Of a stretch of 64,000 bases of DNA, positions 223 to 61,097 are shown piece by piece. Within the stretch, counting starts at the first letter, position 1, and every line of letters begins with the position of its first letter. Under the pieces are notes generated by a model that made no database searches, was not told where the DNA came from, and worked only from the letters and a program-made list of their open reading frames with translations. The stretch comes from a virus. Lineage: Duplodnaviria > Caudoviricetes. The stretch covers positions 1 through 64,000 of the IMG/VR virus record IMGVR_UViG_3300037455_000467. The stretch is one strand, 5' to 3'. The translations under genes were made by a program, and so were the position numbers.

Positions 223-540
223 TTAAACAGGAGCTGGCTTTGGGATCCAGTTATCGTAATCTGCTTTAGTTACTTTAACATAATTACCAGTAAGATTGAA
301 TTCGTCAACAATCTCATTAATTGCATCAAATATAGCCCGATTGTATTGAGCAGGACTATTTTCTTCAGATGTTTTAGCAATTCTAGCTAAGTATGATGCA
401 GTACAATAACCTAATCCAACACTTCCATCTGGATTTAAATGCCAGCCATTAGTAATGTCCCATGTATACCACTCTCTAAATTGAGTAAAAGGGCTCCATG
501 GATTATCGCTAGTAGTAAGCATATAATCTGCTTCATCCAT
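223..540 (-). CDS. Hypothetical phage protein
   Basis: 105-aa ORF co-directional with the RNAP gene (LTTSDNPWSPFTQF...YLARIA). Confidence 0.75.
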   Translation of the reverse strand: MDEADYMLTTSDNPWSPFTQFREWYTWDITNGWHLNPDGSVGLGYCTASYLARIAKTSEENSPAQYNRAIFDAINEIVDEFNLTGNYVKVTKADYDNWIPKPAPV

Positions 541-554: not shown

Positions 555-3362
555 TTACGCCGTTCTAGAAGAGTTAAGAATATTATTAACACTAGTCGTA
601 CTGATACCAAGTGCATCAGCAATCTCAGCTTGAGTAGCACCAGATGCTTGCATTGATTTAGCTCTAGATATGACCGAAGTAGTAATATTAGAATTAGTTT
701 TCGGCATTGCTAGTTCTCTAACTCTATCTGTATCAGCAACATTTAAAATATCTTCTAAACGAGTCTTATGTATTGCGCCAGCTTGAATGGCTTCCCATTC
801 ACTATCCTCAATGTATATATCGTTCTTTTTTGCACCAGTTCTTTCACGAGCTTCGCGAAGAGCTTGAGTACGCAATTTCTTTAAACTGTCTTCATCATCT
901 AAAATATCTGGATTAGCTTGTATTTTAGACTTTACAACAACATCTTGAATAAGCTGGGATTGACGCTCAAGCGGTTTATTTCTTTGTGAATTCTTAAATT
1001 TAGCATCCAAACTAGCTACTTCTTTAGAATATGTTTGTCGAGCAGATGCAGAATATGGCACGGATTCGGTATTAAGTGCCTCTTTTCTAGCAGTATTAGC
1101 CATAGCTTTTAATCTATTAGCATGATCTGCATAAATATTCTCCATTGTAGTTCCAGACGATAGAGAATATGCATCTTTGGCATATGCCATTTTAGTAGTC
1201 TTAGTTTGAGCTTTTATTTCCTTACCAGTTGGTTCTTTCTTACCAGTCTCAGGATTTTTCTTTCTTTCAGGATATGTCCGACCAGTTGGAATATATCTTC
1301 GTTCACCAGTACGCTTATCTGGCTTAATTTCTTTATACTCATCAACTCGAAGATCACTCTTGGCTTTAGATATAAGAGTAGATGCACCAGCATTTGGTCC
1401 ACCTTGATATCTTCGTTTAAGATCAGCAATACCATTTTCTCTTGCAGAACGTTTCCAATCCAAATTATGCTTCTCAGCATCAATAACTACCATTGAATGA
1501 CGAACTGCTCTAGCAATCTCATCATCGGGAGCACCCTTAATAGTCATGTCAGTAATAAGATTAGAAACTTTACCCATCTCTTGCTGTTTATCAAAGCCAT
1601 TTTTCTTAGAAGTTTCAGGCATTCCAGGATATGCCCGGTAAACTTCTTTAGGCTCGAAATTCTTAAGACCATCAAGAGGTGGTTGATTTTGAAGATTAGT
1701 TCCTTTTACAGGAATAACAAGAACAGTATCTCCATCAAAGTCTGCACCAGATAATATACCCGCAGTTTTAGAATTTATGCCCACAGCATCTGGAGAATTC
1801 TTACCAATTACTCGCTCAGCACTTTTAACATTATTGTTAACTGTTAATATAGGAATTTCAAAGCGACCAGCATGAGGATGACGAACTAATGCAACTTGTT
1901 CTCCATTTCGATAGTTGGGTGCAAATATCTCTGTCTCTTTAATACCCGGAACTGGTAATATAACGTGTGAAGATTGACGAGGAAGAGCAGCAGCTTTCAA
2001 ATGAACAGCAGCAGAATCGCATTCATCAGCAAACTCTTCCAATAATTTCTTTTTAACTGTTGGATTTGTAAGAGTAAGAATATCATCTAACTCTGCTTGA
2101 CGTGCATCAGCAGATATCTTTAGCTGTTGTTTAGCCATTGAAGGAAGTTGTTTAGATAAGAACTGAGAAGACAAAGTTGGAGCCCATGTTTCCCAGTCAC
2201 CTTCCTCATTAACAATATTTATGGCCGATAATTGCTTTTTACCATCTTTATCGGTAAAATATCTTTGTGCTAAACGAAGATCACTTTTAGCATCACCTTC
2301 ACGCTTAATAGTTGCGCCAAATGGATTATCCCAATCAATTTCTCCAGTTTCTTTATTAGTTTTAAGCTCTTTAAGAACACTATTATCTTTGTGACCAAAT
2401 ATAGGAGTGTCAGAATGCTTATTTGTATTAAATATGATGTCTACACCATCAGGCATGTCATCAGAATATACTGCCATACCTTTAAGATAGTGAGTATCAC
2501 CAACATTTATTCGAACTTGAGCATAATTAGCAGCACCTAATGAAATATCATCTACTCCACGACGAAGCTCGATAACACCATCTTTATCAATACCTCGTCC
2601 ACCATCAGGTCCAACTTCATCTGCAAAGCGAACTTTAACTCGACTAGGATCAACAGCTACTGGTTTCTCTAAACCGAGTTTAGACCTTGTAGTAGCGCTA
2701 TCAGTTTGATCATATGGAGCATTAATAAGACGAATATCGCCCCGATTAAAGTTTACATCAGCCCAAGTAGTATCTGGGGGACACAACACTTTAACAGTAG
2801 TATTCTTACCAGTACCTGCTTGAGTAACTTTAATCTTATGTACTGCATAACCTTCGCTCTCTAATTGAGCAACTGCATTATCTAGTACATAACGAGTAGT
2901 TCCTAAATATTCTTCTACTCCTGCTCCAACATCTAAATATCCTCCATTATTAAACAACTCAGTCTTAAGAAGCTCGGCAGTATCTCCAGAACGATTTGCT
3001 CTATCCTGAATATCTTCTTTAAGAAGATTACGAACTTGAGATTCGTTTATACCCATACGTCTAGCTGCTGCAGACTGAGAATATCCTTTGGCAATAAGTC
3101 TTTTTGCTTCTGCAACATCTTCTGCTCTATTTTCAGCACGAGCTCTAGACATCATAGCGATCATGTCATTTTTACTCATACCCATGCCACGAGCAATTTC
3201 TGCATCACTCATGCCTTTATGACGTAATTCAATAACATGAGCTCTAAAATTTGCATTACGCTGATATGGATTATCGCCAGATCCCCACGGATATCGCCCA
3301 GAATGCCGAGGAGTACCATAATGCATTAGAAACGCACTGTATTCTTCGTCCGTTACATCCAT
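555..3362 (-). CDS. Single-subunit two-barrel (YonO/cellular RdRP-like) RNA polymerase with HTH domains and an HxG leader
   Basis: Catalytic GADFDGD at 1728-1748, upstream VRHPHAGRFEI, second-barrel QVR...YLKGM; two N-terminal HTHs (GMSDAEIARGMG, GYSQSAAARRMG) and one C-terminal HTH (GATQAEIADALG). Confidence 0.85.
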   Translation of the reverse strand: MDVTDEEYSAFLMHYGTPRHSGRYPWGSGDNPYQRNANFRAHVIELRHKGMSDAEIARGMGMSKNDMIAMMSRARAENRAEDVAEAKRLIAKGYSQSAAARRMGINESQVRNLLKEDIQDRANRSGDTAELLKTELFNNGGYLDVGAGVEEYLGTTRYVLDNAVAQLESEGYAVHKIKVTQAGTGKNTTVKVLCPPDTTWADVNFNRGDIRLINAPYDQTDSATTRSKLGLEKPVAVDPSRVKVRFADEVGPDGGRGIDKDGVIELRRGVDDISLGAANYAQVRINVGDTHYLKGMAVYSDDMPDGVDIIFNTNKHSDTPIFGHKDNSVLKELKTNKETGEIDWDNPFGATIKREGDAKSDLRLAQRYFTDKDGKKQLSAINIVNEEGDWETWAPTLSSQFLSKQLPSMAKQQLKISADARQAELDDILTLTNPTVKKKLLEEFADECDSAAVHLKAAALPRQSSHVILPVPGIKETEIFAPNYRNGEQVALVRHPHAGRFEIPILTVNNNVKSAERVIGKNSPDAVGINSKTAGILSGADFDGDTVLVIPVKGTNLQNQPPLDGLKNFEPKEVYRAYPGMPETSKKNGFDKQQEMGKVSNLITDMTIKGAPDDEIARAVRHSMVVIDAEKHNLDWKRSARENGIADLKRRYQGGPNAGASTLISKAKSDLRVDEYKEIKPDKRTGERRYIPTGRTYPERKKNPETGKKEPTGKEIKAQTKTTKMAYAKDAYSLSSGTTMENIYADHANRLKAMANTARKEALNTESVPYSASARQTYSKEVASLDAKFKNSQRNKPLERQSQLIQDVVVKSKIQANPDILDDEDSLKKLRTQALREARERTGAKKNDIYIEDSEWEAIQAGAIHKTRLEDILNVADTDRVRELAMPKTNSNITTSVISRAKSMQASGATQAEIADALGISTTSVNNILNSSRTA

Positions 3363-3928
3363 GAGTCTTCCTCTTCCTTCTTTAAGTCAGTCATTAATAT
3401 ATCAAAATCATGAATTTTCTTCATAATCTGTAAAATATCTATGACTTCTGGAATGCATGACTGTACATCATCCAACTGATAGATACGCAATTCCATGTCT
3501 AATGAGTGTGGATCCATTCCATACTCAAGACAAAATAGTGCAGTATAAATATATAACTGTTTCATTGAAGCTATAGTTGTACCAGTTTTTAAATCATGAA
3601 TGCGTAACTTATGAGTTTTTTCATTATAGGATATAGCATCAGCAGTACCGAAACAATTATCTGAATAATATAGAATTTGTTCAGATGCCATACGATACCC
3701 TATTGCATCATTTACAAACATGTTTAATGTTTTATGAGTCGAAGGAAGTTTTTGTCTAAGCTTAATACATTGACTAGCAAATTCATGTAATTGTGTTCCA
3801 CGATACTTTGCTTGATTATTCCGATATACTTCACAAAGTTTATCGCCATCATAATTCAACCATGAATAATTACTAGCGCCTAAAAATGCATGCTTTCCAT
3901 CAAGATTGAAATGCTTGTTGAAGTTCAT
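3353..3928 (-). CDS. PD-(D/E)XK nuclease, DUF2800/Cas4-like exonuclease
   Basis: HAFLGAS...GTQLHEFA...FGTADAI...IHDLKTG motif series. Confidence 0.7.
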
Positions 3929-4193
3929 TTAACACCTCTTCTTTATTTTCTGGAAATATGAAATTAGCATATGACATGTTATTGAACTTGTCAACATAAT
4001 AATCTTGATTCGGTTGATGATGTGATTTAGAATATCTTTTGCATTCAAGCATTGCCCATTTGTCCTTATATAGGATTAATAAATCTGGAATACCTTGATA
4101 ATAGCTAGAATCATTCTTTAATACTACACATCCGGGAAATATCTTTTTAAGTTCACGTATTAAGGCCGATTGAAATTTACTTTCTTTATTCAC
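3900..4193 (-). CDS. VRR-NUC domain endonuclease
   Basis: [12 protein letters not shown]...GIPDLLIL...LECKR...QPNQDYY pattern; GTG start. Confidence 0.8.
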
Positions 4194-4244
4194 ATCAGCC
4201 CTTTCTATATAGAAAAAAGAAAACCATAGTTTTTAACAAAAAAT

Positions 4245-4309
4245 TATAGGAGAAATAAACTCTTATTCAGAGTCTTATCTCCCCTATAATAGTCATAGTT
4301 TTTTCTGCG
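4245..4309 (-). promoter_or_regulatory. CGCA-type promoter motif (4283-4309) overlapping a long hairpin (4245-4288) followed by a T-tract
   Basis: Sense CGCAGAAAAAACTATGACTATTATAGGGGAGATAAGACTCT-gaata-AGAGTTTATTTCTCCTATA-ATTTTTTG. Confidence 0.6.
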
Positions 4310-4315
4310 CGGACA

Positions 4316-15525: not shown

Positions 15526-15529
15526 GGTG

Positions 15530-24154: not shown

Positions 24155-24185
24155 TATTTATGCACCATTTCTAAAAATATAAAGG

Positions 24186-24266
<81 letters not shown>

Positions 24267-28396: not shown

Positions 28397-28629
28397 ATTG
28401 TTAAAAAGTTCTTTATTTGTTAACGACTTCGTTTACTTTTTAACATCTTCATTTTCTACCCTTTAAATCGAACAATATTAAATCTTCTTTTGATGGTTTG
28501 TATTTTTTCATTTCTTTTAGAAAATCAGATAATTTTTGTTTAGTATTATTTAAATGAATTATTTCATAGTTATTCAAATTAAATTTTTCAATTTTATCAT
28601 TCATAAAAACCTTTTTCAAAATATAAATG

Positions 28630-28702
28630 TGGGCCCTATGGGAATCGAACCCATGACCTTGAGATTAAAAGTCTCCTGCTCTACCAACTGAGCTAAGGGC
28701 CC
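28630..28702 (-). tRNA. tRNA-Lys(TTT)
   Basis: GGGCCCT/AGGGCCC acceptor, TAGCTCAGTTGGTAGAGC D arm, GGAGA-CT-TTT-AA-TCTC anticodon arm, GGGTTCGATTCCC T arm; 73 nt. Confidence 0.95.
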
Positions 28703-35164: not shown

Positions 35165-36061
35165 CTATGAAGCGGCCTGTAAATATCTAATAGATTGTCT
35201 ATTCTTACTATTTGTACTAGATTTACGATTAGTAGAAGATTTTGGAGTTGATGTAGTCTTACGCTGAGTAGTTGCTGAGGTATTAGATTTCTTAGTTGTA
35301 GTTGAAGAATTTTGTTTAGGTTGTTCATCAGTATTAAATTGTTCATAAACAGCTTGAGCAGCTTTACGAGCCTCACGTGCTTTACGTACTTCATTCATAG
35401 TCTCTACAGTACGTCCACCATTACGCTCTTCTTCTGCCATCTTCTTTTTAAGGTCATCGATACGTTTCTTAGCAGCATCAAGATCTTGCTTAGCTACGTC
35501 ACGTGCTTTAGTTTTTCCATACTTATTAATAAGATTATCATAAACTTTCTTACCAGTAGACTCGTAATGTTGTTTAGATTTTACAGAACCAGCATCAGCT
35601 GCTTGTTTAGCTTGACGTTGTCTTTGATATTGTTCTTCGCGCTGCCTATCGCCACGAGATTCATATTCTTGTTTTGCTTTACTTCCAGCATCAGTTTCTC
35701 TTTTAAAATTATTAGCATAGTCTTTAACACGATCTTTATATTCTTTAGCAGACTCTGCTTGTTTCTTCCATGAATCAACATAGCTATCCATCATTTTATT
35801 TTGAGCATATAAAGCTGCTCCGCCTAAAGCTACACTTCCTGCTACTAATCCAGCAGTTTTAAGAGCTGCTTTTTGTGACTTAGTAAGACCTCTACGCTTC
35901 TTACTAGTCTGTCGATCATGGACTTTACCTTTAGCAGTTCGAGTACCATCAGGATTCTGATATCTACGAACTCCCCATTTCATACCTTTTATGCCGTGAT
36001 GAGAAATATAATCTACATCAAGTTGATCAACAAATGTTGGAGTATAATACACTACATACAC
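35165..36061 (-). CDS. HHG-leader protein with a basic coiled-coil body
   Basis: YISHHGIKGMKWGVRRYQNPDG. Confidence 0.8.
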   Translation of the reverse strand: MYVVYYTPTFVDQLDVDYISHHGIKGMKWGVRRYQNPDGTRTAKGKVHDRQTSKKRRGLTKSQKAALKTAGLVAGSVALGGAALYAQNKMMDSYVDSWKKQAESAKEYKDRVKDYANNFKRETDAGSKAKQEYESRGDRQREEQYQRQRQAKQAADAGSVKSKQHYESTGKKVYDNLINKYGKTKARDVAKQDLDAAKKRIDDLKKKMAEEERNGGRTVETMNEVRKAREARKAAQAVYEQFNTDEQPKQNSSTTTKKSNTSATTQRKTTSTPKSSTNRKSSTNSKNRQSIRYLQAAS

Positions 36062-36064
36062 CTC

Positions 36065-36550
36065 CTAAATATCAATAGTTCCAAGAGATTCTTTACTATA
36101 GGCTTTACGACCACCAGCCCATACGCCATTCTTAACTTTATTCATATTATAGTCAGGCGATGCTAATGCTGAATATACTCCAAGTTCTCCACGCTTAGCT
36201 ACAAATCTAACTACTCGTCCAGATGGTGCTGGAATATCCTCAACTCGTTCATTCATTAGTCGAGCCATCTCACGATTATATTGATTGATAGCATTTTTGC
36301 TCATGAGTCCACGACTAGTATAATATCCACCTTGACGCTGAAGTTGTTTATCATACTGCTTCATGTCTTTAGCAACAAGTTTTTCAGTTTTCTTTTGAAT
36401 CTTATTAGCATTTCTTTTTGCCCATTTAGCATCTTGCTTTTGCAAATGCTTAACACCAGCAGGAGTTAAAGATCCGTCTTCATTTTGATATCGTCTAACG
36501 CCCCACCGTTGTCCTTTAATTCCGTGATGCATTAAATATAAGTCATTCAT
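36065..36550 (-). CDS. HHG-leader protein
   Basis: MNDLYLMHHGIKGQRWGVRRYQNEDGSLT. Confidence 0.8.
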   Translation of the reverse strand: MNDLYLMHHGIKGQRWGVRRYQNEDGSLTPAGVKHLQKQDAKWAKRNANKIQKKTEKLVAKDMKQYDKQLQRQGGYYTSRGLMSKNAINQYNREMARLMNERVEDIPAPSGRVVRFVAKRGELGVYSALASPDYNMNKVKNGVWAGGRKAYSKESLGTIDI

Positions 36551-36552
36551 AG

Positions 36553-37450
36553 CTATAGCATACCAACCATTCTTCTTCCAGCAGTATATGCTTTACTTTT
36601 ATATACTTCACCCATAGTAGTACGATATGATCCTTCAGATATAATAGAATCCATATTAAATACTATAACAGGACTTTGCGCTTGAACTGAATTATATAAT
36701 GCATCATTCGTGTCTAATACCGCATCGTATCCATTTTTTTTTTAATTCATTAAAAAACTTAGCTCTTTGCGTAGCAACATCTTTTGCATATTTTTTATTA
36801 CCTCCAGCATCAGATGGAATGGCATGATTAAATATTGGATAAATATCATTTAAATCTTTATCTGTCGGAATATAATTTGGATCTTTTAAACGATCCATTG
36901 CTGCTCTTCCACGAGCATATCCTGGACTAATTTTATGAACGCCATCTTCAAAACGAGCTCTAAGCCTATTTTCATCAGTTACAAAATTATAAAAGTCTCT
37001 ATCATTTTCATATAATTTTCTAAAAGCTTTTGCTCCACTATCTTCTGATGCAACTTTAATTTCTTTATTCGCTTTATTTTGAATAGAATATTTATAAAAA
37101 TTACCAGTTCCTATATTATTTCCATTATCATCATAAATTGGCATAGGTGCTGGTTTATCAAAAAATTCTTTGTAATGATCAATATCTGCTTTTGTATGCG
37201 ATGCAAAAAACATGTCAGTATTTGATGTACGATTTTTATCATAAGATAATGTTTTAAAAACAGTACCTTCTTGTAATACATTATCATAATGTTTTTTATT
37301 ATATCTACTATATTTTTTCTTGCGTTCTGCTTTTATAGCTTTTTGTTCTGTTTTACTATATGATCCACCTTTTAATGGATATGGTGGTCCATTACGTGTC
37401 CCCCATTTTTGACCAAGAATTCCATGATGCATTAAATATAAGTCATTCAT
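36553..37450 (-). CDS. HHG-leader protein frameshifted at an A10 tract (36734-36743); possible ART-like cargo
   Basis: MNDLYLMHHGILGQKWGTRNGPPYPL from ATG 37450 (AGGTGAG RBS). As sequenced it stops at 36704; with A9 it continues KKNGYDAVLDTND...IVFN to a stop at 36553. Confidence 0.7.
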
Positions 37451-37454
37451 ACAC

Positions 37455-37859
37455 TCACCTATTTTCTTCAATGCCATAAACATTATTAATAGGATCGTAT
37501 GTTAAATGTTTATCTTTTAAATTCATTTTAGACATTAATTTTTTAACACGTTCAATATCTTTTTGATTTGTTTTAGCCCACTTTATAGCAGCATCTTCTG
37601 TTTGTTTCATTTGTTTTTTCATGTATGATTTTTTATATAATTGTGGATATCGTTTAGCTTGAGCTTCCATTCTACCACGAGCAGATGCATTATCTAGCAT
37701 TTGTGCATTAGAATACGCTTCTCGTCTAGCAGCTTTATTAAGTTTTTTTAAATATCTTTTTTCACCAGCAGGAGTAAGAGTCCCATCATAGTTTTCATAG
37801 CGACGTACACCCCAATGCATGCCTTTAATCCCATGATGCATTAAATATAAATCATTCAT
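37455..37859 (-). CDS. HHG-leader protein
   Basis: MNDLYLMHHGIKGMHWGVRRYENYDGTLT. Confidence 0.8.
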   Translation of the reverse strand: MNDLYLMHHGIKGMHWGVRRYENYDGTLTPAGEKRYLKKLNKAARREAYSNAQMLDNASARGRMEAQAKRYPQLYKKSYMKKQMKQTEDAAIKWAKTNQKDIERVKKLMSKMNLKDKHLTYDPINNVYGIEENR

Positions 37860-37886
37860 TGCACCTCAATTCAAACTTCGAAAAAA

Positions 37887-37913
37887 CATAGAGCTAGTAA
37901 ATTTAGCTCTATG
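37887..37913 (-). terminator. Intrinsic terminator
   Basis: CATAGAGCTA/TAGCTCTATG stem followed by TTTTTT. Confidence 0.75.
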
Positions 37914-37922
37914 CTATAGGAT

Positions 37923-38240
37923 TTAATCCAACTTAATGTATGGATACTCACGAGTTATAAAATCTTTAACAATGACTCGCAGGCAGTCACAATCAGTTTT
38001 ATCCTCAAGAATTTGATCTAAATCTTTCTTAAGAAACAGCTTTTTAGTTTCAAGCTCCATTATTTTATTCCGTCGACAAGTGATCTCATCTTTAATATCA
38101 CTAATTTGCTGATCGTAATTATCAATCATAGCTTGAACTTCATCGGCTTTCTTTGAATAATAGTCAAATTCCTTACTGAATTCACCATAATATTCAACTG
38201 CAACATCACGTGTTGATTTTACTCCACTCATAAATATCAC
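37923..38240 (-). CDS. Coiled-coil protein (cassette gene)
   Basis: Own promoter, AGGAGG RBS and terminator. Confidence 0.65.
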   Translation of the reverse strand: MIFMSGVKSTRDVAVEYYGEFSKEFDYYSKKADEVQAMIDNYDQQISDIKDEITCRRNKIMELETKKLFLKKDLDQILEDKTDCDCLRVIVKDFITREYPYIKLD

Positions 38241-38261
38241 CTCCTTTTAACGGATGTCAAT

Positions 38262-38289
38262 CCTATAAAAGAGGCAGTATTTATTGCGA
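38262..38289 (-). promoter_or_regulatory. CGCA-type phage promoter motif
   Basis: Sense TCGCAATAAATACTGCCTCTTTTATAGG. Confidence 0.7.
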
Positions 38290-38538
38290 AAAATATCAAC
38301 TATTTAGTTTTATCTTGAAGATCAGAAAGCTTATGGAACAGCATTTTTCTTTTGAATACTAAATCACAAATTGCCTTGTCGAGATTCGAAATATCTTCTT
38401 TAACGTTTCGAATCTCATCAAATATAATAGATTTGTCATCAGACTCATTATAAGCCATGATTACCACTGCTCCTTAAAATTGTAAAAAGAAAGTAATGGT
38501 AATTTCTACCACAACTCTCTTTTTTGGTTAAATCATTG

Positions 38539-38751
38539 TTACATCCATAACGGATATCTCATAATTATATTGTATTCTTCTCTAGAAAGCAAGCTCAATA
38601 GATAAGATGCTTGCTTATCATTGATCACACTCCAACATCCCATAAAATATCCTTCGCTGTAAGTCTTTGCAGCTTTGATATCAATTTTGTTGTTGAATGA
38701 TCGCCAATTAGCAATCATTCTTTGAACTGCTTTCTTTTCTCTTCTTTTCAT
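38539..38751 (-). CDS. Hypothetical protein (cassette gene)
   Basis: 70 aa, AGGAGG RBS. Confidence 0.65.
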   Translation of the reverse strand: MKRREKKAVQRMIANWRSFNNKIDIKAAKTYSEGYFMGCWSVINDKQASYLLSLLSREEYNIIMRYPLWM

Positions 38752-38790
38752 ACTTCCTCCTAAATATCCGTGAGATCCACATTGATCTCT

Positions 38791-38817
38791 CCTATAAAGA
38801 GGTAGTATTTATTGCGA
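38791..38817 (-). promoter_or_regulatory. CGCA-type phage promoter motif
   Basis: Sense TCGCAATAAATACTACCTCTTTATAGG, nearly identical to 38262-38289. Confidence 0.7.
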
Positions 38818-38823
38818 AAAATA

Positions 38824-39096
38824 TCACACAACATTTCTAGAAACAATTTTCCAATCAAGATAACGATAACAATTATCGTATACTTCTTTATAACAAATAG
38901 ACACTTGCATTTCATCTGGATTTATTATTACATCTCTAATATGCATTAGGCCTTTATTATGTATGTAAAAAAAGCCATCTAAATCTTTTTCTATATGAAG
39001 CCAAGCATCTTCTATTTTAAAATATAAATTGGGATAACAAACTGAATCCATGTCAAATCTTAATACAGATCGTTTTTTAATTTCGAAAACTCTCAT
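38824..39096 (-). CDS. Hypothetical protein, tandem paralog A
   Basis: Shares LYFKIEDAW and IINP..MQV with 39102-39374. Confidence 0.65.
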   Translation of the reverse strand: MRVFEIKKRSVLRFDMDSVCYPNLYFKIEDAWLHIEKDLDGFFYIHNKGLMHIRDVIINPDEMQVSICYKEVYDNCYRYLDWKIVSRNVV

Positions 39097-39101
39097 AACT
39101 A

Positions 39102-39374
39102 TTATCTAACCTCTCTATGAATAATATCAAAACAGGTATATTGATAATAATCATAATAAGTTTCTTTATATATAATACATACTTGCATTTTAGTTGGATT
39201 AATTATAATATTATGAATATGAATGGCGCCCATATCATGACTTCGAAATTCCATCTCTAAATGCTTACCAATTTCAGTCCAAGCATCTTCTATTTTAAAA
39301 TATAAATACAAATCACGGTCACTAACCTCGTATGATTGCATTACTTTACGTCTCTTAATTTCCCAAACATCCAT
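39102..39374 (-). CDS. Hypothetical protein, tandem paralog B
   Basis: Shares LYFKIEDAW; 29-bp identical DNA at 39001-39029 and 39279-39307. Confidence 0.65.
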   Translation of the reverse strand: MDVWEIKRRKVMQSYEVSDRDLYLYFKIEDAWTEIGKHLEMEFRSHDMGAIHIHNIIINPTKMQVCIIYKETYYDYYQYTCFDIIHREVR

Positions 39375-39403
39375 GATTTCTCCAGAATTATTTAATCATA
39401 ATT

Positions 39404-39967
39404 TTATTGATTCTTTCTAGAATATCCATATACCGACCATTCATCATTGCTTTTATCAGCTTCATATTCAAAACCAACTTTTTCAGCAATATGAGTAGAG
39501 CCAGTATTCTCTTTATAAGCTCCCCAGCCAAGATAAGTAGCACCATATTTGTCTGCATTTTTATCAAACCAGTTGACGCCTTGCTGAGCTAATTTTAATG
39601 CTCGTCCCTGACCTCTATAATTAGGATCAGTACCGACAGCTACAGTTAAATGACCTTCACGAGTTGTTGTCATAATATCAAGAAAAGCTACTGGAATATC
39701 ACCATCTTTTTCTAAAAATCGTTTAACAACATACTCGCCTTCTTGAAGTGTTAAGAATTCGTTAGATCCTTCATCATCACCAAGAAGATATTTATCTTTT
39801 TTGGACATAGAATTATAGATACGATCTACATCATTTTTAGTCTTAGCAGCACGCTGCATTCGTCTATGATAAATACCTTCTTCAGTCAAAGATCCATCAG
39901 CATTCTGATAACGTCTAACACCCCATTTCATGCCTTTTACGCCATGATGAGCTAAATATATATTCAT
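39404..39967 (-). CDS. HHG-leader protein with a C-terminal GNAT acetyltransferase domain
   Basis: YLAHHGVKGMKWGVRR; VGTDPNYRGQGRALKL; ENTGSTHIAEKVGF. Confidence 0.8.
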   Translation of the reverse strand: MNIYLAHHGVKGMKWGVRRYQNADGSLTEEGIYHRRMQRAAKTKNDVDRIYNSMSKKDKYLLGDDEGSNEFLTLQEGEYVVKRFLEKDGDIPVAFLDIMTTTREGHLTVAVGTDPNYRGQGRALKLAQQGVNWFDKNADKYGATYLGWGAYKENTGSTHIAEKVGFEYEADKSNDEWSVYGYSRKNQ

Positions 39968-40039
39968 GAGTAAAAGTCCTTACTAAAAATATAAAGCTAG
40001 CCGTAAATTTCTTCACAGCTAGCCTTATAGAAACTAACT

Positions 40040-40336
40040 TTAATCCTCTTGAGAGAATTTTTCTTTATACTTCATTACAGCAGTTCGCTCCATGAACATC
40101 TTAGCACCTTCATGGGTGAGCCTATCTATTTCAGATTTAACGACACAACGATCTCTTTTTAAAGTATCAAGCTCGTTCTCTAAGGTCTCAATAGCATCCT
40201 CAAGCTGATCGAACTTAATTTTGAGTTCGTGTTTCTCATCATCTTTAGCATTGACTCGTTCATGAATATCATCTAAGATCTCTTCACAAAGTCCAACTAT
40301 GTGATAATTTATACTCATAACTAACCTCCTCTCCAC
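40040..40336 (-). CDS. Coiled-coil protein (cassette gene)
   Basis: Own promoter and terminator; resembles 37923-38240. Confidence 0.65.
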   Translation of the reverse strand: MERRLVMSINYHIVGLCEEILDDIHERVNAKDDEKHELKIKFDQLEDAIETLENELDTLKRDRCVVKSEIDRLTHEGAKMFMERTAVMKYKEKFSQED

Positions 40337-40355
40337 AATAGTCTTTCTGTCAGTT

Positions 40356-40383
40356 CCTATTATAGAAGAAGTTAGTTTTGCGA
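40356..40383 (-). promoter_or_regulatory. CGCA-type phage promoter motif
   Basis: Sense TCGCAAAACTAACTTCTTCTATAATAGG. Confidence 0.7.
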
Positions 40384-40384
40384 G

Positions 40385-40423
40385 AAAAAAGAAAAGGTGG
40401 TTAATGATTCAACTAACCACCTT
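40385..40423 (-). terminator. Intrinsic terminator directly upstream of the next promoter
   Basis: AAGGTGGTTA...TAACCACCTT stem followed by TTCTTTTTT. Confidence 0.75.
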
Positions 40424-40441
40424 AAATCTTAGAATATAATT

Positions 40442-40921
40442 TTAGATTGACGGTCGAACCAACTGGCTCATTCCATTAACAAGTCTTTGAGGAACTGTAC
40501 TATTCCTTTCAAGACCAATCCAGAAAGCTAGAATAATACCATATGTTACAATGCCACCCATTTTTAACATGGTTTGCGAATATCCATCTTGTCTCTTGTT
40601 TTGCGCTTCTATTATCTGAAGCTTTATTTTGTCTTTTTCAGAACTTCCTTTCTCAAGGGAATTCAGAATATCACTTAAAACTTTCAGATTATTTGCTGCC
40701 ATTTGATACTCAGGTGTATCAGCATGCAATGTTGACATTGTACTGATGGCATTAACCATCTCTTCCTTTATTAGTTCTTTGATTTTTTCATAATCTAATT
40801 CACTCTCATCTTCGTTAATAGATACAGCAACTTTGGTTACCGATCCATTATTGTATCCCAAAAGATTTAATAATGTTGGTGAATTTACCATACCTTTTCC
40901 TTTCGTCCTAGGAAGAATCAT
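40442..40921 (-). CDS. Membrane-anchored hypothetical protein (cassette gene)
   Basis: 159 aa, C-terminal TM. Confidence 0.65.
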   Translation of the reverse strand: MILPRTKGKGMVNSPTLLNLLGYNNGSVTKVAVSINEDESELDYEKIKELIKEEMVNAISTMSTLHADTPEYQMAANNLKVLSDILNSLEKGSSEKDKIKLQIIEAQNKRQDGYSQTMLKMGGIVTYGIILAFWIGLERNSTVPQRLVNGMSQLVRPSI

Positions 40922-40939
40922 TCTCTTCGATTCTTCTCT

Positions 40940-40966
40940 CCTTTATAGAAAAAGTATTTTTTGCGG
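40940..40966 (-). promoter_or_regulatory. CGCA-type phage promoter motif
   Basis: Sense CCGCAAAAAATACTTTTTCTATAAAGG. Confidence 0.65.
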
Positions 40967-40972
40967 AACTTA

Positions 40973-41902
40973 TTATAACAAATTATTATACTTCTGATCA
41001 TTACCAGTTGTACGTAATCTCTCCCAATCAGGCTCTCCATACTTTTCAACATATGACTTGTAACCAACAAAGTCCTTACCATACCGTCTTAAATTACTTT
41101 CAAGAACAGCCTTGGTAGCTTTATCATAAGTCTTTTGGAATTCTGAAGCACGCTTCTTTTCGCGTTCAACTTCAGCCGCTCTACGCTTATTCTCTGCAGC
41201 AGCTTCTTTACGAGCCTTATTACGCTTCATGCCCCAATAATCAGCTTGCTCTCGTGCTGAATCTCTGTTTCGATTAATATCACGTGCACTAAATGTTGTG
41301 TCTTTATTTACAACCTTAGCTTCTGGACCATTATATCGTCCTTCGCGCATATTATTAACGAATTCTTTACGAGCATCTGAATCTCGAACTGATTTCATAG
41401 CATCAGATATCTTAGTTTTTGTTGCTGCTTTCTGCTGATTCTTAGCAGTCTTCATATTGTTATAATTAGCTCGTGTAAATTGATCTGCTATAGCTTCTCG
41501 TTCTTTATCAGTATAACTATAGAAACCAGGATTTTCTTTAATTGCTTCATTTGCATACTTCTTAGCAAGATTATACTGGTGAGTATCGCTTACTTTATTA
41601 GCGGCCATATTAGCAATATAAGCAGTAGCAAGAACCCCACCAGCAATTGCAGCACCTTTAGCAATTTTCTTATAAGTCTCTTTAGCTTCATCTGATGTCA
41701 ACTTTTCTTTAAGAGCATCTCGCTTTTCTTGTTTAGCAGCTTTACGATCTTGACGATTCTGCCAATATTTAGCATAGCGTTTCTTACCAGCATCTGTGAG
41801 TTTTCCTGCAGCAGTTTCATATCTACGGACACCCCACTTCATGCCTTTTACGCCATGATGAGCTAAATATAAATCATCAGTATAACTTGGTAAATACTCC
41901 AA
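40973..41902 (-). CDS. HHG-leader protein with a basic helical body
   Basis: DDLYLAHHGVKGMKWGVRRYET. Confidence 0.8.
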   Translation of the reverse strand: MEYLPSYTDDLYLAHHGVKGMKWGVRRYETAAGKLTDAGKKRYAKYWQNRQDRKAAKQEKRDALKEKLTSDEAKETYKKIAKGAAIAGGVLATAYIANMAANKVSDTHQYNLAKKYANEAIKENPGFYSYTDKEREAIADQFTRANYNNMKTAKNQQKAATKTKISDAMKSVRDSDARKEFVNNMREGRYNGPEAKVVNKDTTFSARDINRNRDSAREQADYWGMKRNKARKEAAAENKRRAAEVEREKKRASEFQKTYDKATKAVLESNLRRYGKDFVGYKSYVEKYGEPDWERLRTTGNDQKYNNLL

Positions 41903-41917
41903 AATATAAACACCTCC

Positions 41918-42991
41918 TTATCTATTAATTCCGAATTGATTCAACAAGTTATTAGTTGCTTCTATTGTTGATTGATTAAGATTACCAATCATCTCAGAAA
42001 TATCACCGGATTTAACAGATTTAGCAGCATTGTAAACTGTTTTAGCATCTTGAATAGTCTTTGGAGCATTCTTTATTTTAGATACTGTAGTCTTAGCTTT
42101 TTCAAATTGCTCAGCAGTATCATCAGTATTACGTTCTCTAGTTCTACGTTGTTCATACCGAGCTTGTTCTTTTGCTTTTTTAGAAGCTTCGTTCTTTTCT
42201 TTAACAACTGTAGCAATACTTTTTGCGGCATTACCAGCAGTATTCTTAACGGTGTTGACAGCTTTTTTAGCATTATCGCTATTTAAATACTTGCTAGTGC
42301 CGTCTTTAATCGTAGAAATTTGCTGTGCAAAAATATCACTAGCAGCTTGTTGCTTAGTAGCTGCTGCTCTAGCTTTAGAAGCCTTAGCATTAGCTTCTTT
42401 AATAGCATCAGAAGCTCGATGAGATGCGGGTTCGACATTCTTTGTTGACTTCTTAGCAATATCAGCAACTTTACTATTCTTAAGCTTACTAGTAGCTGCC
42501 TCAATAAGTTGTTTATCCTTACCAGTTTTGTGAAGAGCATAAGCAGTTCCACCAACTAAAGCAGCTCCTGCAGCAGCTTTAAGTCCCTTTGAAACAATTC
42601 CAGATTTAGGAGATCTATTTGAAGCAACTGCTTTCATGTATTTATTGTGCTTAGCTTTTCTACGAGCACTATTAGCTAAAGATGCTCCAGCACTAGCAGC
42701 TGTAGCTCCTGCAACATATGGAGTAGCTTTATATAAATATGGATTCTTTCTAACAGCAAGTGTAGCAGCTGTTCCAACTACACCTTTAACAGCTGCTTTC
42801 TTTAAAGACTTGGATGACTTTTTATCATACTTGCTAGCTAGTTTAGCATACTTCTTTCTACCAGCAGGAGTAAGAGTCCCATCATAGTTTTCATAGCGAC
42901 GTACACCCCATCGCATACCTTTGATACCGTGATGAGCTAAATATAAATCATCTACGTATGAAGATGAGTACTCCACATTTAGTACCTCCAA
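41918..42991 (-). CDS. HHG-leader protein, K/A-rich helical body with hydrophobic patches
   Basis: DDLYLAHHGIKGMRWGVRRYENYDGTLT; starts 6 nt after the holin stop. Confidence 0.8.
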   Translation of the reverse strand: MEVLNVEYSSSYVDDLYLAHHGIKGMRWGVRRYENYDGTLTPAGRKKYAKLASKYDKKSSKSLKKAAVKGVVGTAATLAVRKNPYLYKATPYVAGATAASAGASLANSARRKAKHNKYMKAVASNRSPKSGIVSKGLKAAAGAALVGGTAYALHKTGKDKQLIEAATSKLKNSKVADIAKKSTKNVEPASHRASDAIKEANAKASKARAAATKQQAASDIFAQQISTIKDGTSKYLNSDNAKKAVNTVKNTAGNAAKSIATVVKEKNEASKKAKEQARYEQRRTRERNTDDTAEQFEKAKTTVSKIKNAPKTIQDAKTVYNAAKSVKSGDISEMIGNLNQSTIEATNNLLNQFGINR

Positions 42992-51080: not shown

Positions 51081-54000
51081 TTAATTTACTTCAACATTGA
51101 CAAGCCATCCATTCCAAAAAGTTAACTCAAACCAGACATCATCTTTAGACACCCAACTTACAGTAGCCGATAATGCCCAATCTGTTTGCCTTGTTTGTCC
51201 GTTATATACTTTAACTGATCCAAACTTTAATCCATCAAGAACATCATAAGTTATTTCACCAGCCGTTATGGTATGAGCTTCTATTCTATCGCCATTAATA
51301 TATCCACTAGTAATATTATTAGCATCAAGATGTGTTACATCAATATATCTAGCATCGATTTCTCCGCCTCGAATGCGATCAGCATTAATATAACCACTAG
51401 TAATATTATCAGCATTAATATTAGTAACATATACTCTAGATGCATCAATAGTACCAGTAGTAATATGTCCACCATCAATAACTGTAGTAGTTTCATCTTT
51501 ACTTGGATATGAAGTAGTAACGGATCCATCAGACATCTTCATTTGAGTAGCCATAAATATTACTGGATAACTACTACTATATTGTGGTCTAGAAATAGTC
51601 CAAGTATAGCTTGATGGAGTAGTTGAATCATTTGTAACCCAACTAGATGGCATATAATTATTATTAATATATGATGCACTGGTTCCACTACCAGCTCTTA
51701 AATATATAGTTTGAACTGCTGATAATGAATCAATATTTTTAATAGCATTATTAATCTTATCTAATCCTAATAATGTAGTTCTAACATCTCCATCATCATA
51801 TAATGTTTGAACTGCTTGATAAAGATAATAACTACTAGATAATTGAAAAACATACGTAGTCCAAGTATCATTATTAGCACTTGTATTTGATACCCAATAA
51901 CTAGGTAAACTTGGAGTAGAACTATAATAACTTCTATAATAAACATATTGAACATCGGTTATAGCATCTTCTTTTTTAGTATAATTATTTATTCCTTGGA
52001 AATTGGTAACACTAATATGCTCAGTATCAAGTTGTGTTGATGTAATAGAATGTGTTAAAATATGTCCACCGTCAATAACAGTTGTAGTTTCATCACGTTT
52101 TGGATTAGTAGTAGTTAATGATCCATCATTATATAATGTTTGAGTAGCTACATATAAATAGGGGTATGAAGAACTATATTGAGGTCTATAAGTAGTCCAT
52201 CTATTTTGATAACCAGTTTCATCAGTTATCCAATAAGTTGGAATTTGGCTAGAACTAGTAATTATATTACCTTGATTACTAGAAAAACTTTTATAAATTA
52301 TTTGAGTTTTATTAGCATTTTCAGATTTTTTAGAATAATTTGATCCATCTTTAAGTGATCCAACTGTTATTTGATTAACTGCAACTCGTGCTGCATCAAT
52401 CGTACCAGTAGTAATATGTCCGCCATCGATTACTGTAGTAGTTTGATCTTTTTTAGGAGTAGTACAATTTATAGTACCATTTGCAAACTTAGTCTGCTTA
52501 GCAACAAATAATACAGGATAATTACTATTATACTCAGGTCTTGTGCTAGTCCAAATGTTCTGATTACCAGTAGTATTAGTGACCCAACTAGTAGGGGCAG
52601 CCATAGAATTAGTACCGGACACTGCAGATTTGTAAATATATTGATAATCATTAACCGTAGACATAATATCGGCTTTATTATCATCGATATCATCTACTCT
52701 ATTATTTAAACTAGTAAATGCTGTATTACCAATAAGATTAATTCTATTAGCGTTAATTGTTACATTTTCTGGCGATTGGTTAATCATGGAAATGATTTCA
52801 CCTTTATCAGTTTTTGCAGAAACGACTGACATAATATTATCACTAGTAAGCTTAACATAAGCTTCTGTAGATTCAACTATTGCATCGCCAATTTTACGCA
52901 TATAATTTTCAGTATAATCATCACCATCTTCTGGAGCAGCAGTCCAGTCTGTAGCTTTACTTCCTATCTCAAACTTCATACCACACACATAGGCTTTATT
53001 ACTACCATAAAGTCTAAGAAGAATATAACGATTAACTTCGGAATAACTCTCAGTACAGAACCATCTAACCCAATACTTTGTCCACTCTCCATTTAACTGA
53101 ATATTAGCTTGTCCATTATAATTATTATCGATCTCAACATCTTGACAAGTTAAAATATTAAATTTAGCTGAATTAGAATTTGAACCAAATATAACTTGTA
53201 GTGAGCCAACTCCCTTAGCATAGAATCCAAGACAATAATATTCGCCAACTTTTGGAATTATTACATTGTTAAATTTAGCAAAATCTTTATATGTTGAACT
53301 AGAAGCAGAAGTATTATCCAAATATCTAATAGCAAGATCCCTATACTTAAGTGTATCAAGAATAGAATATCCGCCAGAATAACTTCTATCATCAGATGAT
53401 CCTATAATATTGATGTTACTATCAATAAGATCCTTTCCATTACTATCTAAATATCCTTTTCCAGTAAAAGCTTGTGTATTCAGAAGGTAATTTCTACCAC
53501 CTATCTGCATATTATTAAATTCGCCTTTACTAGTATAATCTTCACTAACTCTTGCTAAAATATCACTACTTGTTTGACTAATTTCACTACTTCTATTAAC
53601 AATTTCAGTAGCAATTAATTCATCAACATATCTTTGGTTAATAGTTACAGTTTCACTAATTCTAGAAATAAAAGTCTTTTCAGTTGCTTCAATAAGATGT
53701 TGATTTTGTTCAACTCGTTCATATAAATCAGAAAGAGTTAACATATATGTATCATAATCTTCTGGAGCAGCCGTCCAATCACTCATATTATTATTTTGTT
53801 CAAATTTTAATCCATAAATAGAAGCTTTATTACCACCATATAATCTCAGCAATACATTTCTCTTTTGCTGAGATTCAATACTATCATTAGTAAGATTCCA
53901 TTTTATCCAATATCTAATCCAAGTATTAGATAAAGTAATCTCAATCATTCCATCAGAAGAAGTTCTTGTAATATTTTGAGAAGTAAGCGCCGTAATAGTT

Positions 54001-57000
54001 TCATTGTTTTGAGCTGGATAAAAATATGCTGTAATATTTCCAGAACCTTTAGCCCAAAAACTAAAATAATATGTTTTATCTATTGCTGGTTCTATAACAT
54101 TTGCATACCTTGCAAATTCGCTATACATTAAACTAGATAATAAAGTATTATCCAACTCTCTAACATAGTATCCCGAATCATTTGGAGTATTAGATACATT
54201 AGATTCTGCAAAATCTAATGCTCCATCCATATATCTTCCGATAGAAATATTATTGCTATCAAGAATTGGACTACCTTTGCTATCCGTTAAATCAATACCA
54301 GTAAACACTTTAGTATACTTTAACAAATTTCGACCATCAATATAAATATTATTAAATTCAGTTTTAGTAATATAAGTTGCGTCAATATTTGCATAAATAC
54401 CATCAGTAGCAACTGCTATAGCAGAATTACGATTAGATGCTTCTATCGATACAAGATTTTCTGTCTCTTGTTTCGTATATACACTTGACGTATCAGCTTT
54501 AAGATTAATTGCATTTGCATTCTGAGTAATATTAGTTTCGGCAGAATTAAGTCTTTCTGAAATAGTTGCAGCTTCAGTTTTAGTATAATAAGTATTACCG
54601 ACTGTTGTTTTATAAGTGTCAAGGTCTTGGTATAATTCTGAATATTTGGTCACAATATCTTGCTGACTAGCTGTACCATCATCGTTAGTTCCCATACGAG
54701 TAGTAAGATTTCTAATAGTAGCACTATTAGTATCAGCAGTTTGTTTAACTTCATTAACTGTATTCGATGTTGTAACAGTTGTGATATTAGTTTGTTGGAA
54801 TGAATCTCCAACATACGCCATAAGTTGATTTGTAGATGAGAAACTGCCATTGGTAGCAGAGCTCATAACACCGAGTGGAATATAATAATAATTATCAACT
54901 GCTACTGGAATGGTTGTTGTAAGATAATTGTTATCAGCTATAGTAAATGTATTGCCAACAACAGTACCCTTAAGATAAATTACTTTATCTTTACTTCCAT
55001 TTTGAATGATTCCATTGGAACTATAATTAATATTAGAAGCCATTAAATCATTATTATTACCTGTACTACCTTGTACAATAGAATCCCGTGAATAAAGAAG
55101 TGGATGAGATAAATTAAATGATACTCCAGCTCCAATATTCTTATAACCAGAATTTGTACCACAAATTATTCGTCCACTATTAATTGCACTTGCAGCAGTA
55201 ATATCAGATTCATATCGAGTTCTATTATAAGTATCTTCAGTCCAGTAACCAGTAGCTCTCCAATTAGTTCCATCATATGTTAAATTAATAACTGAATTAG
55301 CTTCAAACTGTGTTGTTACTCTACTATCATTAATATAAATTGGAATAGCTTCACTAAGAGTTCCGTCGCTTAAAGTAAGTCTTAAAGTAGCATTTCCACT
55401 TCCCGCATATGGAAGTTTATATGCAATACTTTTACCAACTTTAATTTCAGAATCTCTAGTTATACCAGTCCATGCTCCTGTTGAACTAGTTTGAGTTCCA
55501 ATAATATACTCAACACTTTGATCAAGAGCTGTTTCGGTAATTTCAGTAATTGTAGTAATTGTTGCACTATTTTCAGCTACATCATGAACAAGTTCATTAA
55601 AGACATTACTTGTAATCCTAGTTTCAAGTTCAGTCATTACTAAATCTGTTTTACTTTGAAGTTCACTAGTAGCTGTATCTAAAATTGGTTCAGACCACCC
55701 ATAAGTACCATCACTAAATTGATACTCATAGCAATAAAAATAATAAGGAGTACCAGGATTATAAACTGGAATAAATACATCCCATTTAGTTTGAGTTGCT
55801 ATTGGTTTGTTAGAGCTATCTAAAATATTATACTCAGAATCGTCATCTAAATATTCATAATAAGTACCAGCACCAGTTCTAGAAATATCAGTTGGTGCAG
55901 ATGGAATTGTATCATTATTACGAACAGTCCAAAGTTGAATAGTAGCTTCTATACCAACAAAATTATTTCTATATGTGTCAGATAATCCTCGATCATAAAC
56001 AACATCTGACCATCCATAAGTGCCATCAAGATACTGATATTCATAGCAATAATAGTAATATGGTTTAGACTCATCATAAGGTGGTATAGTAGCATACCAA
56101 TATTGACAAAGTATAGGATTACCATCGCTATCAAGAATATCAAAAGCAAGATTATCGGTTAAGAATTGACCATTAAGTACTGGCTGTTCGGGCTTCCCAG
56201 GAGGTGTTTCACTATCGGTGTTAATCCAAACCTGTGTTGAACTTACAAGAGATTTATTAGTAGCAGTGACTAAATTGTTATAACTTTGAATAAGACTACC
56301 TAATGAAGACTCGGTATTAGTACTCCACATCTGAATATTGCTGTCAAATTGCTGAATAGCTACAATATTATTCTCGGCAGTAGTAATTCGAGCAAGAGCA
56401 TCAGATATAGCAGTATCGCGAATTAGCTGCCATGAATAGACTCCATTAATCTTCGAAAATCGATAGTTATAACCATCATACTCGGAACCAGAATCCATGA
56501 CATAATACACATCGCCAACATGAGCATCTTTAAGAGCATCAGTAGTCCAGTCACTTGCAGGATAATTTACAAGTGTAGGAACTGCCGTACCAGTATATGT
56601 ATCAATAGCACCATCAATGCGAGAATTTAGTGTAGCTACAATAGCTTCAATTTCTTCAGCTGTATAAACTTGTTCATTGAGTGAATTAAGAGAAAGAGTA
56701 CCTTCACCAACAAGCTGACCATTAATTGTACCAACTGTAATATTAGATGCATTAAGATTATAAACCCTAATGACACCAGCATTAATTTCGCCAGCTGTTA
56801 ATTTATTAGCACTAACATCATTAATCATAGCATCTGATATAGATGCATCTCTAATTACACCACGATTAATCCATGAATTTTGTACATTTGAAATATCAAC
56901 AAGTGCATAATGTACATCCAAGTCATTAACATCTGCATAACTAATAGTCGCATTATCGATTACACCACGATAAATATGAGCATAATTGGCTTCGAGATCT

Positions 57001-59789: not shown

Positions 59790-59952
59790 TTATTCACCGT
59801 TCTAGTAGTATCTATCGTAATAGACCACATCGGCTTTGTCATTGATTTCGCAGTGACTACGAAAACGGACGCCCTCTCCTTCCTTGGAGCTCCAAATTGT
59901 ATCTATAGTCCCCCCTTGCGGGGAATATAAGACACAGAAAGCTCTAAGTAAT

Positions 59953-60040
59953 CAGGACGAACCCCATTAGAATTCGAAGCGTTGTTGTTGTTCGCATTGC
60001 CATTGTTGTTCACATTAGCGAAATTCGTGCCGGAAACAAC
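59953..60040 (-). repeat. DGR template repeat (TR), 88 bp
   Basis: Reads VVSGTNFANVNNNGNANNNNASNSNGVRP; 12 AAY codons; matches VR at 72 of 88 positions. Confidence 0.95.
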
Positions 60041-60046
60041 GCAAAA

Positions 60047-60532
60047 TCATAGAAGACGCCCTTTAAACAATTTCCTATCAGATTTTCTCCATGCTTTTAT
60101 TAAATGGATTTCTTTATCGAGATGCTCGATAGAATTACGAAAATAGGAAATATCAACATCAAAGACTCTTGCTACAGATTCTAACTCTGTTTTAATTGCT
60201 TGACACTTAGCCAATGCTGTATTCTGATAAGACAGACGAACATCATATTCACTTTTAAACCTTGGATAAATAATTTTAGCTCCATTAAGATCATCGATCA
60301 TTTCATTTGCTAAACGATCGATTGTTTCAGTTTTCTTAAATATAATGTTATCTATTCTATCAGAATTGCCCTCTAAATGAGCGGCATTCTCATACTTTCG
60401 TCTTAATGGAGAATGCTTAGACCTTATACCAAAATCTCTAAGGCATAAGTCAGTAAGTACTTCATGAGTTTTAATAGCATGGGACAGTACTTCCATCTTA
60501 GATGGTTTCCTGTCCCCTACATTTACCGCCAT
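60047..60532 (-). CDS. avd: DGR accessory variability determinant
   Basis: 161-aa helical protein directly upstream of TR; R...Q..AL..C...L; LIKAWRKSD. Confidence 0.85.
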   Translation of the reverse strand: MAVNVGDRKPSKMEVLSHAIKTHEVLTDLCLRDFGIRSKHSPLRRKYENAAHLEGNSDRIDNIIFKKTETIDRLANEMIDDLNGAKIIYPRFKSEYDVRLSYQNTALAKCQAIKTELESVARVFDVDISYFRNSIEHLDKEIHLIKAWRKSDRKLFKGRLL

Positions 60533-60549
60533 TTTAGAATATCAATGAC

Positions 60550-60684: not shown

Positions 60685-60699
60685 TTTTATCTCCTTTTA

Positions 60700-61077: not shown

Positions 61078-61079
61078 AA

Positions 61080-61093
61080 ACGCCTAAAGGCGT
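61080..61093 (-). other. GC-rich hairpin downstream of VR (DGR target-recognition element)
   Basis: ACGCC-TTTA-GGCGT, 4 nt after the target stop codon. Confidence 0.7.
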
Positions 61094-61097
61094 CAGA

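Follow-up and report, generated by a model that had tools for sequence, protein, structure and literature searches.

Is the 935-residue protein encoded near one end of IMG/VR record IMGVR_UViG_3300037455_000467 (Duplodnaviria; Caudoviricetes) a helix-turn-helix (HTH) DNA-binding protein, as a standard annotation would have it, or a single-chain RNA polymerase that looks like one? The first-pass annotation of the window (the whole 64,000-nucleotide (nt) stretch analysed here, bases 1-64000 of the 80,424-nt record, which occurs in public sequencing runs from bovine-gut metagenomes) proposed the second. Our comparisons of the sequence and of a predicted model support placing the protein in the two-barrel (double-psi beta-barrel) RNA polymerase superfamily, and we consider it likely that it acts as a single-chain, DNA-dependent two-barrel RNA polymerase of the 1706-ORF75/PHROG 4291 family, with the mechanism proposed below. 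The gene and the elements within it on which this reading is built are:

555-3362, minus strand: polymerase gene P0001, a stop-free open reading frame (ORF) of 935 amino acids (aa), member of PHROG 4291
3255-3362, minus strand: N-terminal leader, residues 1-36; predicted disorder (predicted local distance difference test, pLDDT, about 50) with near-invariant columns
3165-3245, minus strand: first N-terminal HTH, residues about 40-66; stretches matching Pfam HTH_23, HTH_68 and Terminase_5; model helices 37-48 and 53-59
3018-3128, minus strand: second N-terminal HTH, residues about 79-115; best Pfam HTH_23 stretch at 79-115, also HTH_28 and HTH_29
1068-2666, minus strand: predicted two-barrel catalytic core, residues about 233-765; placed by VIA-align to QDE-1, RDR2, P74-26 gp62 and P23-45 gp64
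2475-2519, minus strand: basic motif Q282-x-R284...K294-G295 of the first (beta-like) barrel, reading Q282-V-R...Y-L-K294-G-M296; found in the sequence, with invariant columns and model strands 280-287 and 291-300
1875-1883, minus strand: R494-H495-P496 strand of the second (beta-prime-like) barrel; found in the sequence, R494 and P496 invariant
1728-1748, minus strand: putative metal-binding loop GADFDGD, residues 539-545 (D541, D543, D545); S538-D545 invariant or nearly so, between helix 531-536 and strand 546-551 in the model
564-650, minus strand: C-terminal sigma-region-4-like HTH, residues about 905-933; Pfam Sigma70_r4_2 at 908-928, also Sigma70_r4 and HTH_3

The uninterrupted 935-aa translation on the minus strand bears out the gene call of the first-pass annotation, whose GADFDGD loop, R-H-P strand and QVR...YLKGM motif lie exactly where it had placed them; Pfam families cover its two N-terminal HTHs and its C-terminal HTH, and the "HxG leader" that it mentioned can be located at L12-M-H-Y-G16. 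In an alignment of 115 homologues sharing 44-80% identity, Q282, R284, K294, G295, R494, P496, D541, D543, G544 and D545 are all invariant, which argues that the motifs and HTHs are not there by chance. From the RdRP-type (RNA-dependent RNA polymerase) Q-x-R...K-G pattern, rather than from a residue-level superposition, Q282/R284/K294/G295 appear to be the equivalents of Rpb2 K979/K987.

To see which fold carries these motifs, an AlphaFold2 model was built on the homologue alignment; it reached a pLDDT of 88.6 and a predicted template-modelling score of 0.82, with residues 1-40 less confident. In a Foldseek search of the PDB, every match at E<=1e-3 was a two-barrel polymerase (probability 1.00), comprising QDE-1 (E 7e-10), P74-26 gp62 and P23-45 gp64 (about 1e-7 to 1e-6) and plant RDR2, while bacterial beta-prime chains (about 1e-2) and P23-45 gp96 (1e-2) followed as weaker matches. 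VIA-align superposed the model on QDE-1 (7y7p_A) with Z 14.0 and a root-mean-square deviation of 4.5 Å over 373 aligned residues (model 233-762), on RDR2 (7w82) with Z 13.7, on P74-26 gp62 with Z 12.0, on P23-45 gp64 with Z 11.9, and on Rpb1-type subunits with Z about 10.7 over model residues 454-661. The BFVD matches were viral RdRP-like proteins and P23-45 gp64 (E 7e-7); YonO was not among the BFVD matches listed. The first-pass annotation had made its case depend on double-psi beta-barrels in the model and had named YonO, QDE-1 and phi14:2 gp66 for comparison. Its single-chain two-barrel polymerase holds up, since the model matches double-psi barrel polymerases only and the active-site residues are invariant, and the structure search recovered QDE-1 well; from phi14:2 gp66 a fragment came back from BFVD, though weakly (E 0.11). 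Judged from the model, the core would catalyse nucleoside triphosphate (NTP) polymerisation.

Standard databases give a different picture. Pfam recognises HTH families alone in the full protein (HTH_23 at E 1.2e-13 in three stretches, Sigma70_r4_2 at E 3e-8), NCBIfam gives weak HTH matches alone, and hmmscan of the catalytic core (541 residues, 230-770) against Pfam returned no family at E<=10, so that RdRP family PF05183 did not match these residues either. A single-sequence search of the PDB found nothing, and a profile search of the PDB found only HTH look-alikes and a marginal match to P23-45 gp96 (E 0.32). Because HTHs alone are detected and the core has no Pfam family, a standard pipeline would name the protein an HTH protein, just as had been foreseen; most homologues in GenBank are indeed called "helix-turn-helix DNA-binding domain protein", while RefSeq calls them RdRP. 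These labels would suit a protein that is mainly a transcription regulator, its polymerase-like core a catalytically dead scaffold. We regard this as exceedingly unlikely, because a dead domain would not keep its catalytic residues strictly invariant across 115 sequences of such divergence, and the core is moreover the best-conserved and most confidently modelled part of the protein.

Against PHROG 4291, itself labelled "RNA-dependent RNA polymerase", the match spans nearly the whole protein (E=0, 1160 bits, residues 6-931 of 935 against profile positions 6-907 of 909). The polymerase matches 250 phage records at 38-50% identity and 98-100% coverage, and a search of 1.84 billion cluster representatives (50%-identity clustering) gave hits at E<=1e-30 to at least 870 representative clusters; the nearest database relative is 90% identical. 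The family occurs in siphophages of Actinobacteria and Firmicutes. Nor is the two-barrel reading new, having been made earlier in PMC2919709, in 10.1101/842583 and in PHROG 4291, and the protein is thus a new member of a known family. Among the five YonO-like families of Ruprich-Robert and Thuriaux (2010, PMC2919709) is the phage 1706 protein. Koert et al. (2021, bioRxiv 10.1101/842583) described HTHs at both ends, the DxDGD motif and an HHpred match to RdRP PF05183 (probability 95.7% with a family alignment) in the same protein family, which they identified as a signature gene of an actinophage supercluster together with Lactococcus and Faecalibacterium phages. With that HHpred match and none by hmmscan, kinship to the Pfam RdRP family is remote. 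We found no paper with biochemical data on any member of the PHROG 4291 family, and the published Arthrobacter, Rhodococcus and cluster DJ phage papers do not mention the polymerase.

The likeness to YonO of SPbeta that the first-pass annotation drew stands at the level of the superfamily and not at that of sequence: the best BLASTP hit of YonO to the polymerase had an E value of 0.07 and did not cover the active site, and when the profile of 115 sequences was compared with YonO by hhalign, the probability was 1%. The family is separate from YonO within one superfamily, with a modelled fold that lies nearest to the RdRP/QDE-1 branch and P23-45 gp64. YonO is likewise a single-peptide phage polymerase of about 100 kDa with a D-x-D-G-D loop, and its dependence on DNA and its transcription of late genes have been demonstrated (PMC5467207); HTH fusions or a leader are not recognised in it.

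The structural matches raise the question of the template. A genuine RNA-dependent RNA polymerase, copying phage or host transcripts into double-stranded or antisense RNA for regulation or counter-defence, would agree with the top structural matches, the cellular RdRPs QDE-1 and RDR2, with Q-x-R...K-G as the RdRP-like variant of the basic motif (PMC2919709), and with the PF05183 match of Koert et al. (10.1101/842583). QDE-1 (Neurospora) and RDR2 (plants) are also single-chain enzymes with the same barrel order, Q-x-R...K-G and D-x-D-G-D, aligning over about 360-370 residues. However, identity to them is only 12-15%, they have neither HTH modules nor the leader, and they work in eukaryotic RNA silencing rather than in a double-stranded DNA (dsDNA) phage. 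The polymerase, by contrast, carries three fused DNA-binding HTH modules and travels with a promoter-like DNA motif (below); the characterised phage two-barrel single-chain enzymes, YonO (PMC5467207), P23-45 gp64 and gp96 (PMC10770324) and phi14:2 gp66, are all DNA-dependent; and QDE-1 itself also uses DNA templates (PMC9508822). We thus consider an RNA-templated role very unlikely, and the "RNA-dependent" database label is probably a misnomer inherited from the eukaryotic relatives of the fold. A DNA-directed role is argued for by the dsDNA siphophage setting, the fused HTHs, the replication operon and a promoter-like motif confined to the sense strand. A phage parallel is the non-virion RNA polymerase P23-45 gp64/P74-26 gp62 (PMC10770324), also a single-chain two-barrel enzyme encoded among early or replication genes, and gp64 reads its own promoter motif; gp64 differs in its size (about 600 aa), in having no fused HTHs and no conserved leader, and no sequence-level similarity to it was found.

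Intergenic regions of the window contain a motif of about 32 nt, found on the sense strand only, composed of a TCGCAA block, a TTAC/TACT block and TATAGG followed by purines. Its 11-12 copies (at 40967, 40384, 38818, 38290, 35116, 33447, 31342, 29607, 16435, 14506 and 4311, with a partial copy at 15526) precede early, DUF7211 and replication genes and the polymerase operon, the last copy being:

4279-4311, minus strand: motif copy before the endonuclease-exonuclease-polymerase-small protein operon, nhmmer E 1.7e-5, in the intergenic gap 4194-4315

In Arthrobacter phage Circum a TCGCG-TAAATTACA-N5-TATAAT version occurs 8 times, never on the opposite strand, and in Lactococcus phage CHPC971 a CACA-TTTTACA-N5-TATAGT version occurs about 10 times; these were recognised by k-mer counting and then by eye, so the likeness across phyla is qualitative, and the spacer in the window is 2-3 nt longer than in these relatives. 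Sigma-70 promoters have a spacing of 17 nt. With blocks only 5-8 nt apart, the motif does not fit that geometry, and sigma-70-type sites were not enriched around the polymerase gene. A compact signal in phages of two host phyla argues for a phage-encoded reader, for which the polymerase is the obvious candidate; it may read this candidate promoter of about 30 nt through its HTHs, free of sigma.

A second signal, TTATATTTT, is confined to the sense (minus) strand, where the window has 33 sites (6779-62552); chance would give 5.7 over the two strands combined. Many of the sites are 7-40 nt upstream of a start codon, and the signal also immediately follows both tRNAs and comes after some hairpins. 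As a terminator it was not borne out, a strong upstream hairpin being present at only 7 of the 33 sites; a second class of promoter, a terminator and a processing signal are all conceivable roles. The tRNAs, tRNA-Leu(TAA) at 24184-24266 and tRNA-Lys(TTT) at 28629-28702, belong to the early region and are encoded on the sense strand; the TTTATATTTT signal comes immediately after each of them.

All genes in the window are oriented on the minus strand. In the sense direction, tape measure, Dit, reverse transcriptase and a 2502-aa tail protein are followed by the endolysin, seven DUF7211-tagged genes, many small genes with the two tRNAs, and then primase-polymerase, annealing protein, helicase, endonuclease, exonuclease, the polymerase, a 105-aa gene and the end of the record. 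The immediate partners of the polymerase are:

3900-4193, minus strand: endonuclease, upstream operon partner, by PHROG match
3353-3928, minus strand: exonuclease, upstream operon partner, by PHROG match; overlaps the polymerase start
223-540, minus strand: 105-aa conserved protein, phrog_4303, the last gene, always found after the polymerase

The block endonuclease-exonuclease-polymerase-small gene-genome end is common to Circum, CHPC971, phage 1706 and Rhodococcus phage ReqiPepy6, and in ReqiPepy6 a cos overhang follows it. Across Firmicutes and Actinobacteria, the last genes of these four phages encode proteins 43-54% identical to the phrog_4303 protein, for which a confident model (pLDDT 85.6) found no similar fold among solved structures (best Z only 2.9). 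It may be an accessory factor. This location also accommodates a replication enzyme that makes origin primers or R-loops or resembles the DNA polymerase PolD, its HTHs recognising repeats of an origin close to the end of the genome: the gene stands at the end of a replication module that also encodes primase-polymerase, helicase, annealing protein and nucleases, it adjoins the terminal repeat region 1-222, and PolD is an example of this fold making DNA (PMC7708050). Yet the phage already encodes a 1326-aa primase-polymerase, the motif is dispersed before many genes instead of clustering at a single origin, and no PolD chain is among the top structural matches listed, so we judge a replicative function to be quite unlikely.

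Several observations weigh against a DNA-dependent, promoter-reading polymerase. QDE-1 and RDR2, the nearest relatives with solved structures, take RNA templates, even though QDE-1 copies DNA too, and we infer the template, product and promoter of the family alike. For the fourth catalytic Asp in the beta-like barrel, the equivalent of Rpb2 D837, there are three candidates conserved at 90% or more (D261, D272 and D308) rather than one assigned residue. A hidden Markov model derived from the motif in the window found nothing in CHPC971 or Circum, and searches with fixed spacing and with short-core patterns did no better than chance, the spacer varying by 1-2 nt. The authors of the Gordonia cluster DJ phages interpreted a similar motif as a sigma-70 -10 box. 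A weak hint in favour of expression comes from a bovine-gut RNA-seq library of another study, which contains contigs over 223-2522, 2471-3126 and 3214-4209, with uneven depth (about 2 to 45) against a flat 18 in the DNA run; these contigs carry no starts, ends or strand and cannot prove transcription.

At the very start of the record lies a non-coding repeat region (1-222) with a 26-nt repeat at 1-26 and 116-141 and two CACTATAGGG boxes. One RNA-library contig (run X3) loops back 114 nt there, and DNA contigs reach about 97-fold depth compared with 18 elsewhere. At the other end, position 80424 falls inside a terminase-like ORF. We therefore treat both ends of the record as assembly breaks and not as proven physical termini.

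In the mechanism that we propose for the DNA-dependent polymerase, the two barrels (residues about 233-765) would be joined at an interface bearing the predicted Mg-binding D541-x-D543-G-D545 loop, the R494-x-P496 strand and Q282-x-R284...K294-G295, and would polymerise NTPs there. The two N-terminal HTHs and the C-terminal sigma-4-like HTH would hold the enzyme to a promoter of about 30 nt, making a separate sigma factor unnecessary, and phage genes would be transcribed from the motif copies, the polymerase operon included. The disordered, near-invariant leader would most likely serve to dock the protein to some conserved partner. Foremost among the possibilities is loading into the capsid, in which case the enzyme would enter with the DNA and start early transcription; we hold this to be about evenly balanced.

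Evidence on the leader (L-x-H-Y-G ... S-G-R-Y-P-W-G-S-G, near-invariant overall, with G16, S21, G22, G27 and G29 invariant in the 115 homologues) comes in part from a tag found elsewhere in the phage. Among sense-strand ORFs of at least 60 aa in the 80-kb record, the pattern [LIVMFA]-x-H-[HY]-G occurs nine times, always within about 30 residues of the N-terminus: in the polymerase and in eight DUF7211 proteins, one of which is encoded next to the terminase. The shared part is the L-x-H-[HY]-G half only. Phage 1706 ORF75 has the same leader, and GenBank record EU081845.1 labels the 1706 orf75 homologue "structural protein", a label that the note to ReqiPepy6 gp106 repeats. Two further genes of EU081845.1 outside the morphogenesis module, orf62 and orf71, are labelled likewise, which points to their having been detected in virions, not labelled by gene position.

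Other findings count against the virion part. The polymerase gene ends the replication operon and is not in a structural or late module, and such a location, together with co-transcription with nucleases, is typical of non-virion polymerases. The leader scored 13.3 bits against Pfam DUF7211 (PF23847), below the cut-off of 27 (E 0.055, profile positions 2-12 only), and its hhalign match to the DUF7211 leaders of the window is weak (E 0.011). A search of 1706, of CHPC971 and of part of the Circum genome met the DUF7211 motif on the polymerase only; 1706 has the leader and no DUF7211 proteins, and the "structural protein" labels of 1706 orf75 and ReqiPepy6 gp106 are depositor annotations. On balance, we would put virion delivery of the polymerase at close to an even chance. 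A fuller version, in which the leader of a virion-delivered, self-sufficient transcriptase is a divergent DUF7211-type tag that loads it into the capsid along with a varying set of tagged effectors, and the three HTHs read the three promoter blocks after injection, free of sigma, is tentative and on the unlikely side. If virion delivery is right, phi14:2 gp66, N4 gp50 and P23-45 gp96, polymerases that are packaged with the virion and injected for early transcription, would offer a similar way of working, and gp66 and gp96 are two-barrel enzymes; their genes, however, are much larger and lie in structural modules, and the structural likeness is weak.

The eight DUF7211-tagged proteins open with D-L-Y-L-x-H-H-G-x-K-G-M-x-W-G joined to unrelated C-terminal parts. 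Seven stand in a row after the endolysin (35165-42991) and one beside the terminase gene (record position about 79461); lysine is abundant in several, and the one at 39404-39967 is a GNAT acetyltransferase. We found no paper mentioning DUF7211. The tagged proteins are candidates for cargo or effector proteins.

Within its family, the protein shares the leader, two HTHs, two-barrel core and C-terminal HTH with 1706 ORF75, the "putative RNA polymerase" of Faecalibacterium phage FP_oengus and the actinophage HTH proteins, and 1706 ORF75 and its relatives occupy the same place in the genome, with the exonuclease before, the small conserved gene after and then the genome end. The present phage differs in being uncultured, from bovine gut and about 80 kb or more in length, and compared with 1706 it adds the eight DUF7211-tagged proteins. 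The window itself contributes one further member and no new principle. If active, the family would rank with the most widespread RNA polymerases encoded by phages, present in hundreds of isolated actinophages and in dairy Lactococcus phages, and most records would misname such a polymerase as a DNA-binding protein. A 100-kDa enzyme with built-in promoter modules would, if the reading is true, offer a compact model for a cellular-type RNA polymerase that works without sigma or accessory subunits, and the family can be tested directly in culturable hosts (L. lactis for phage 1706, Arthrobacter for Circum).

Two other elements of the window deserve mention. A diversity-generating retroelement spans 58590-61976. 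Its reverse transcriptase (58590-59789) matches phrog_1423, its template repeat of 88 nt lies at 59953-60040, and the variable repeat (61127-61214) falls towards the C-terminal end of a 292-aa ORF (61098-61976) beside Dit; 15 of the 16 mismatches between the repeats fall on template adenines (sense strand). The 2502-aa tail protein (51081-58589) contains tandem repeats, with five copies at 75-nt spacing in 56903-57427 and further repeat families in 51283-52554.

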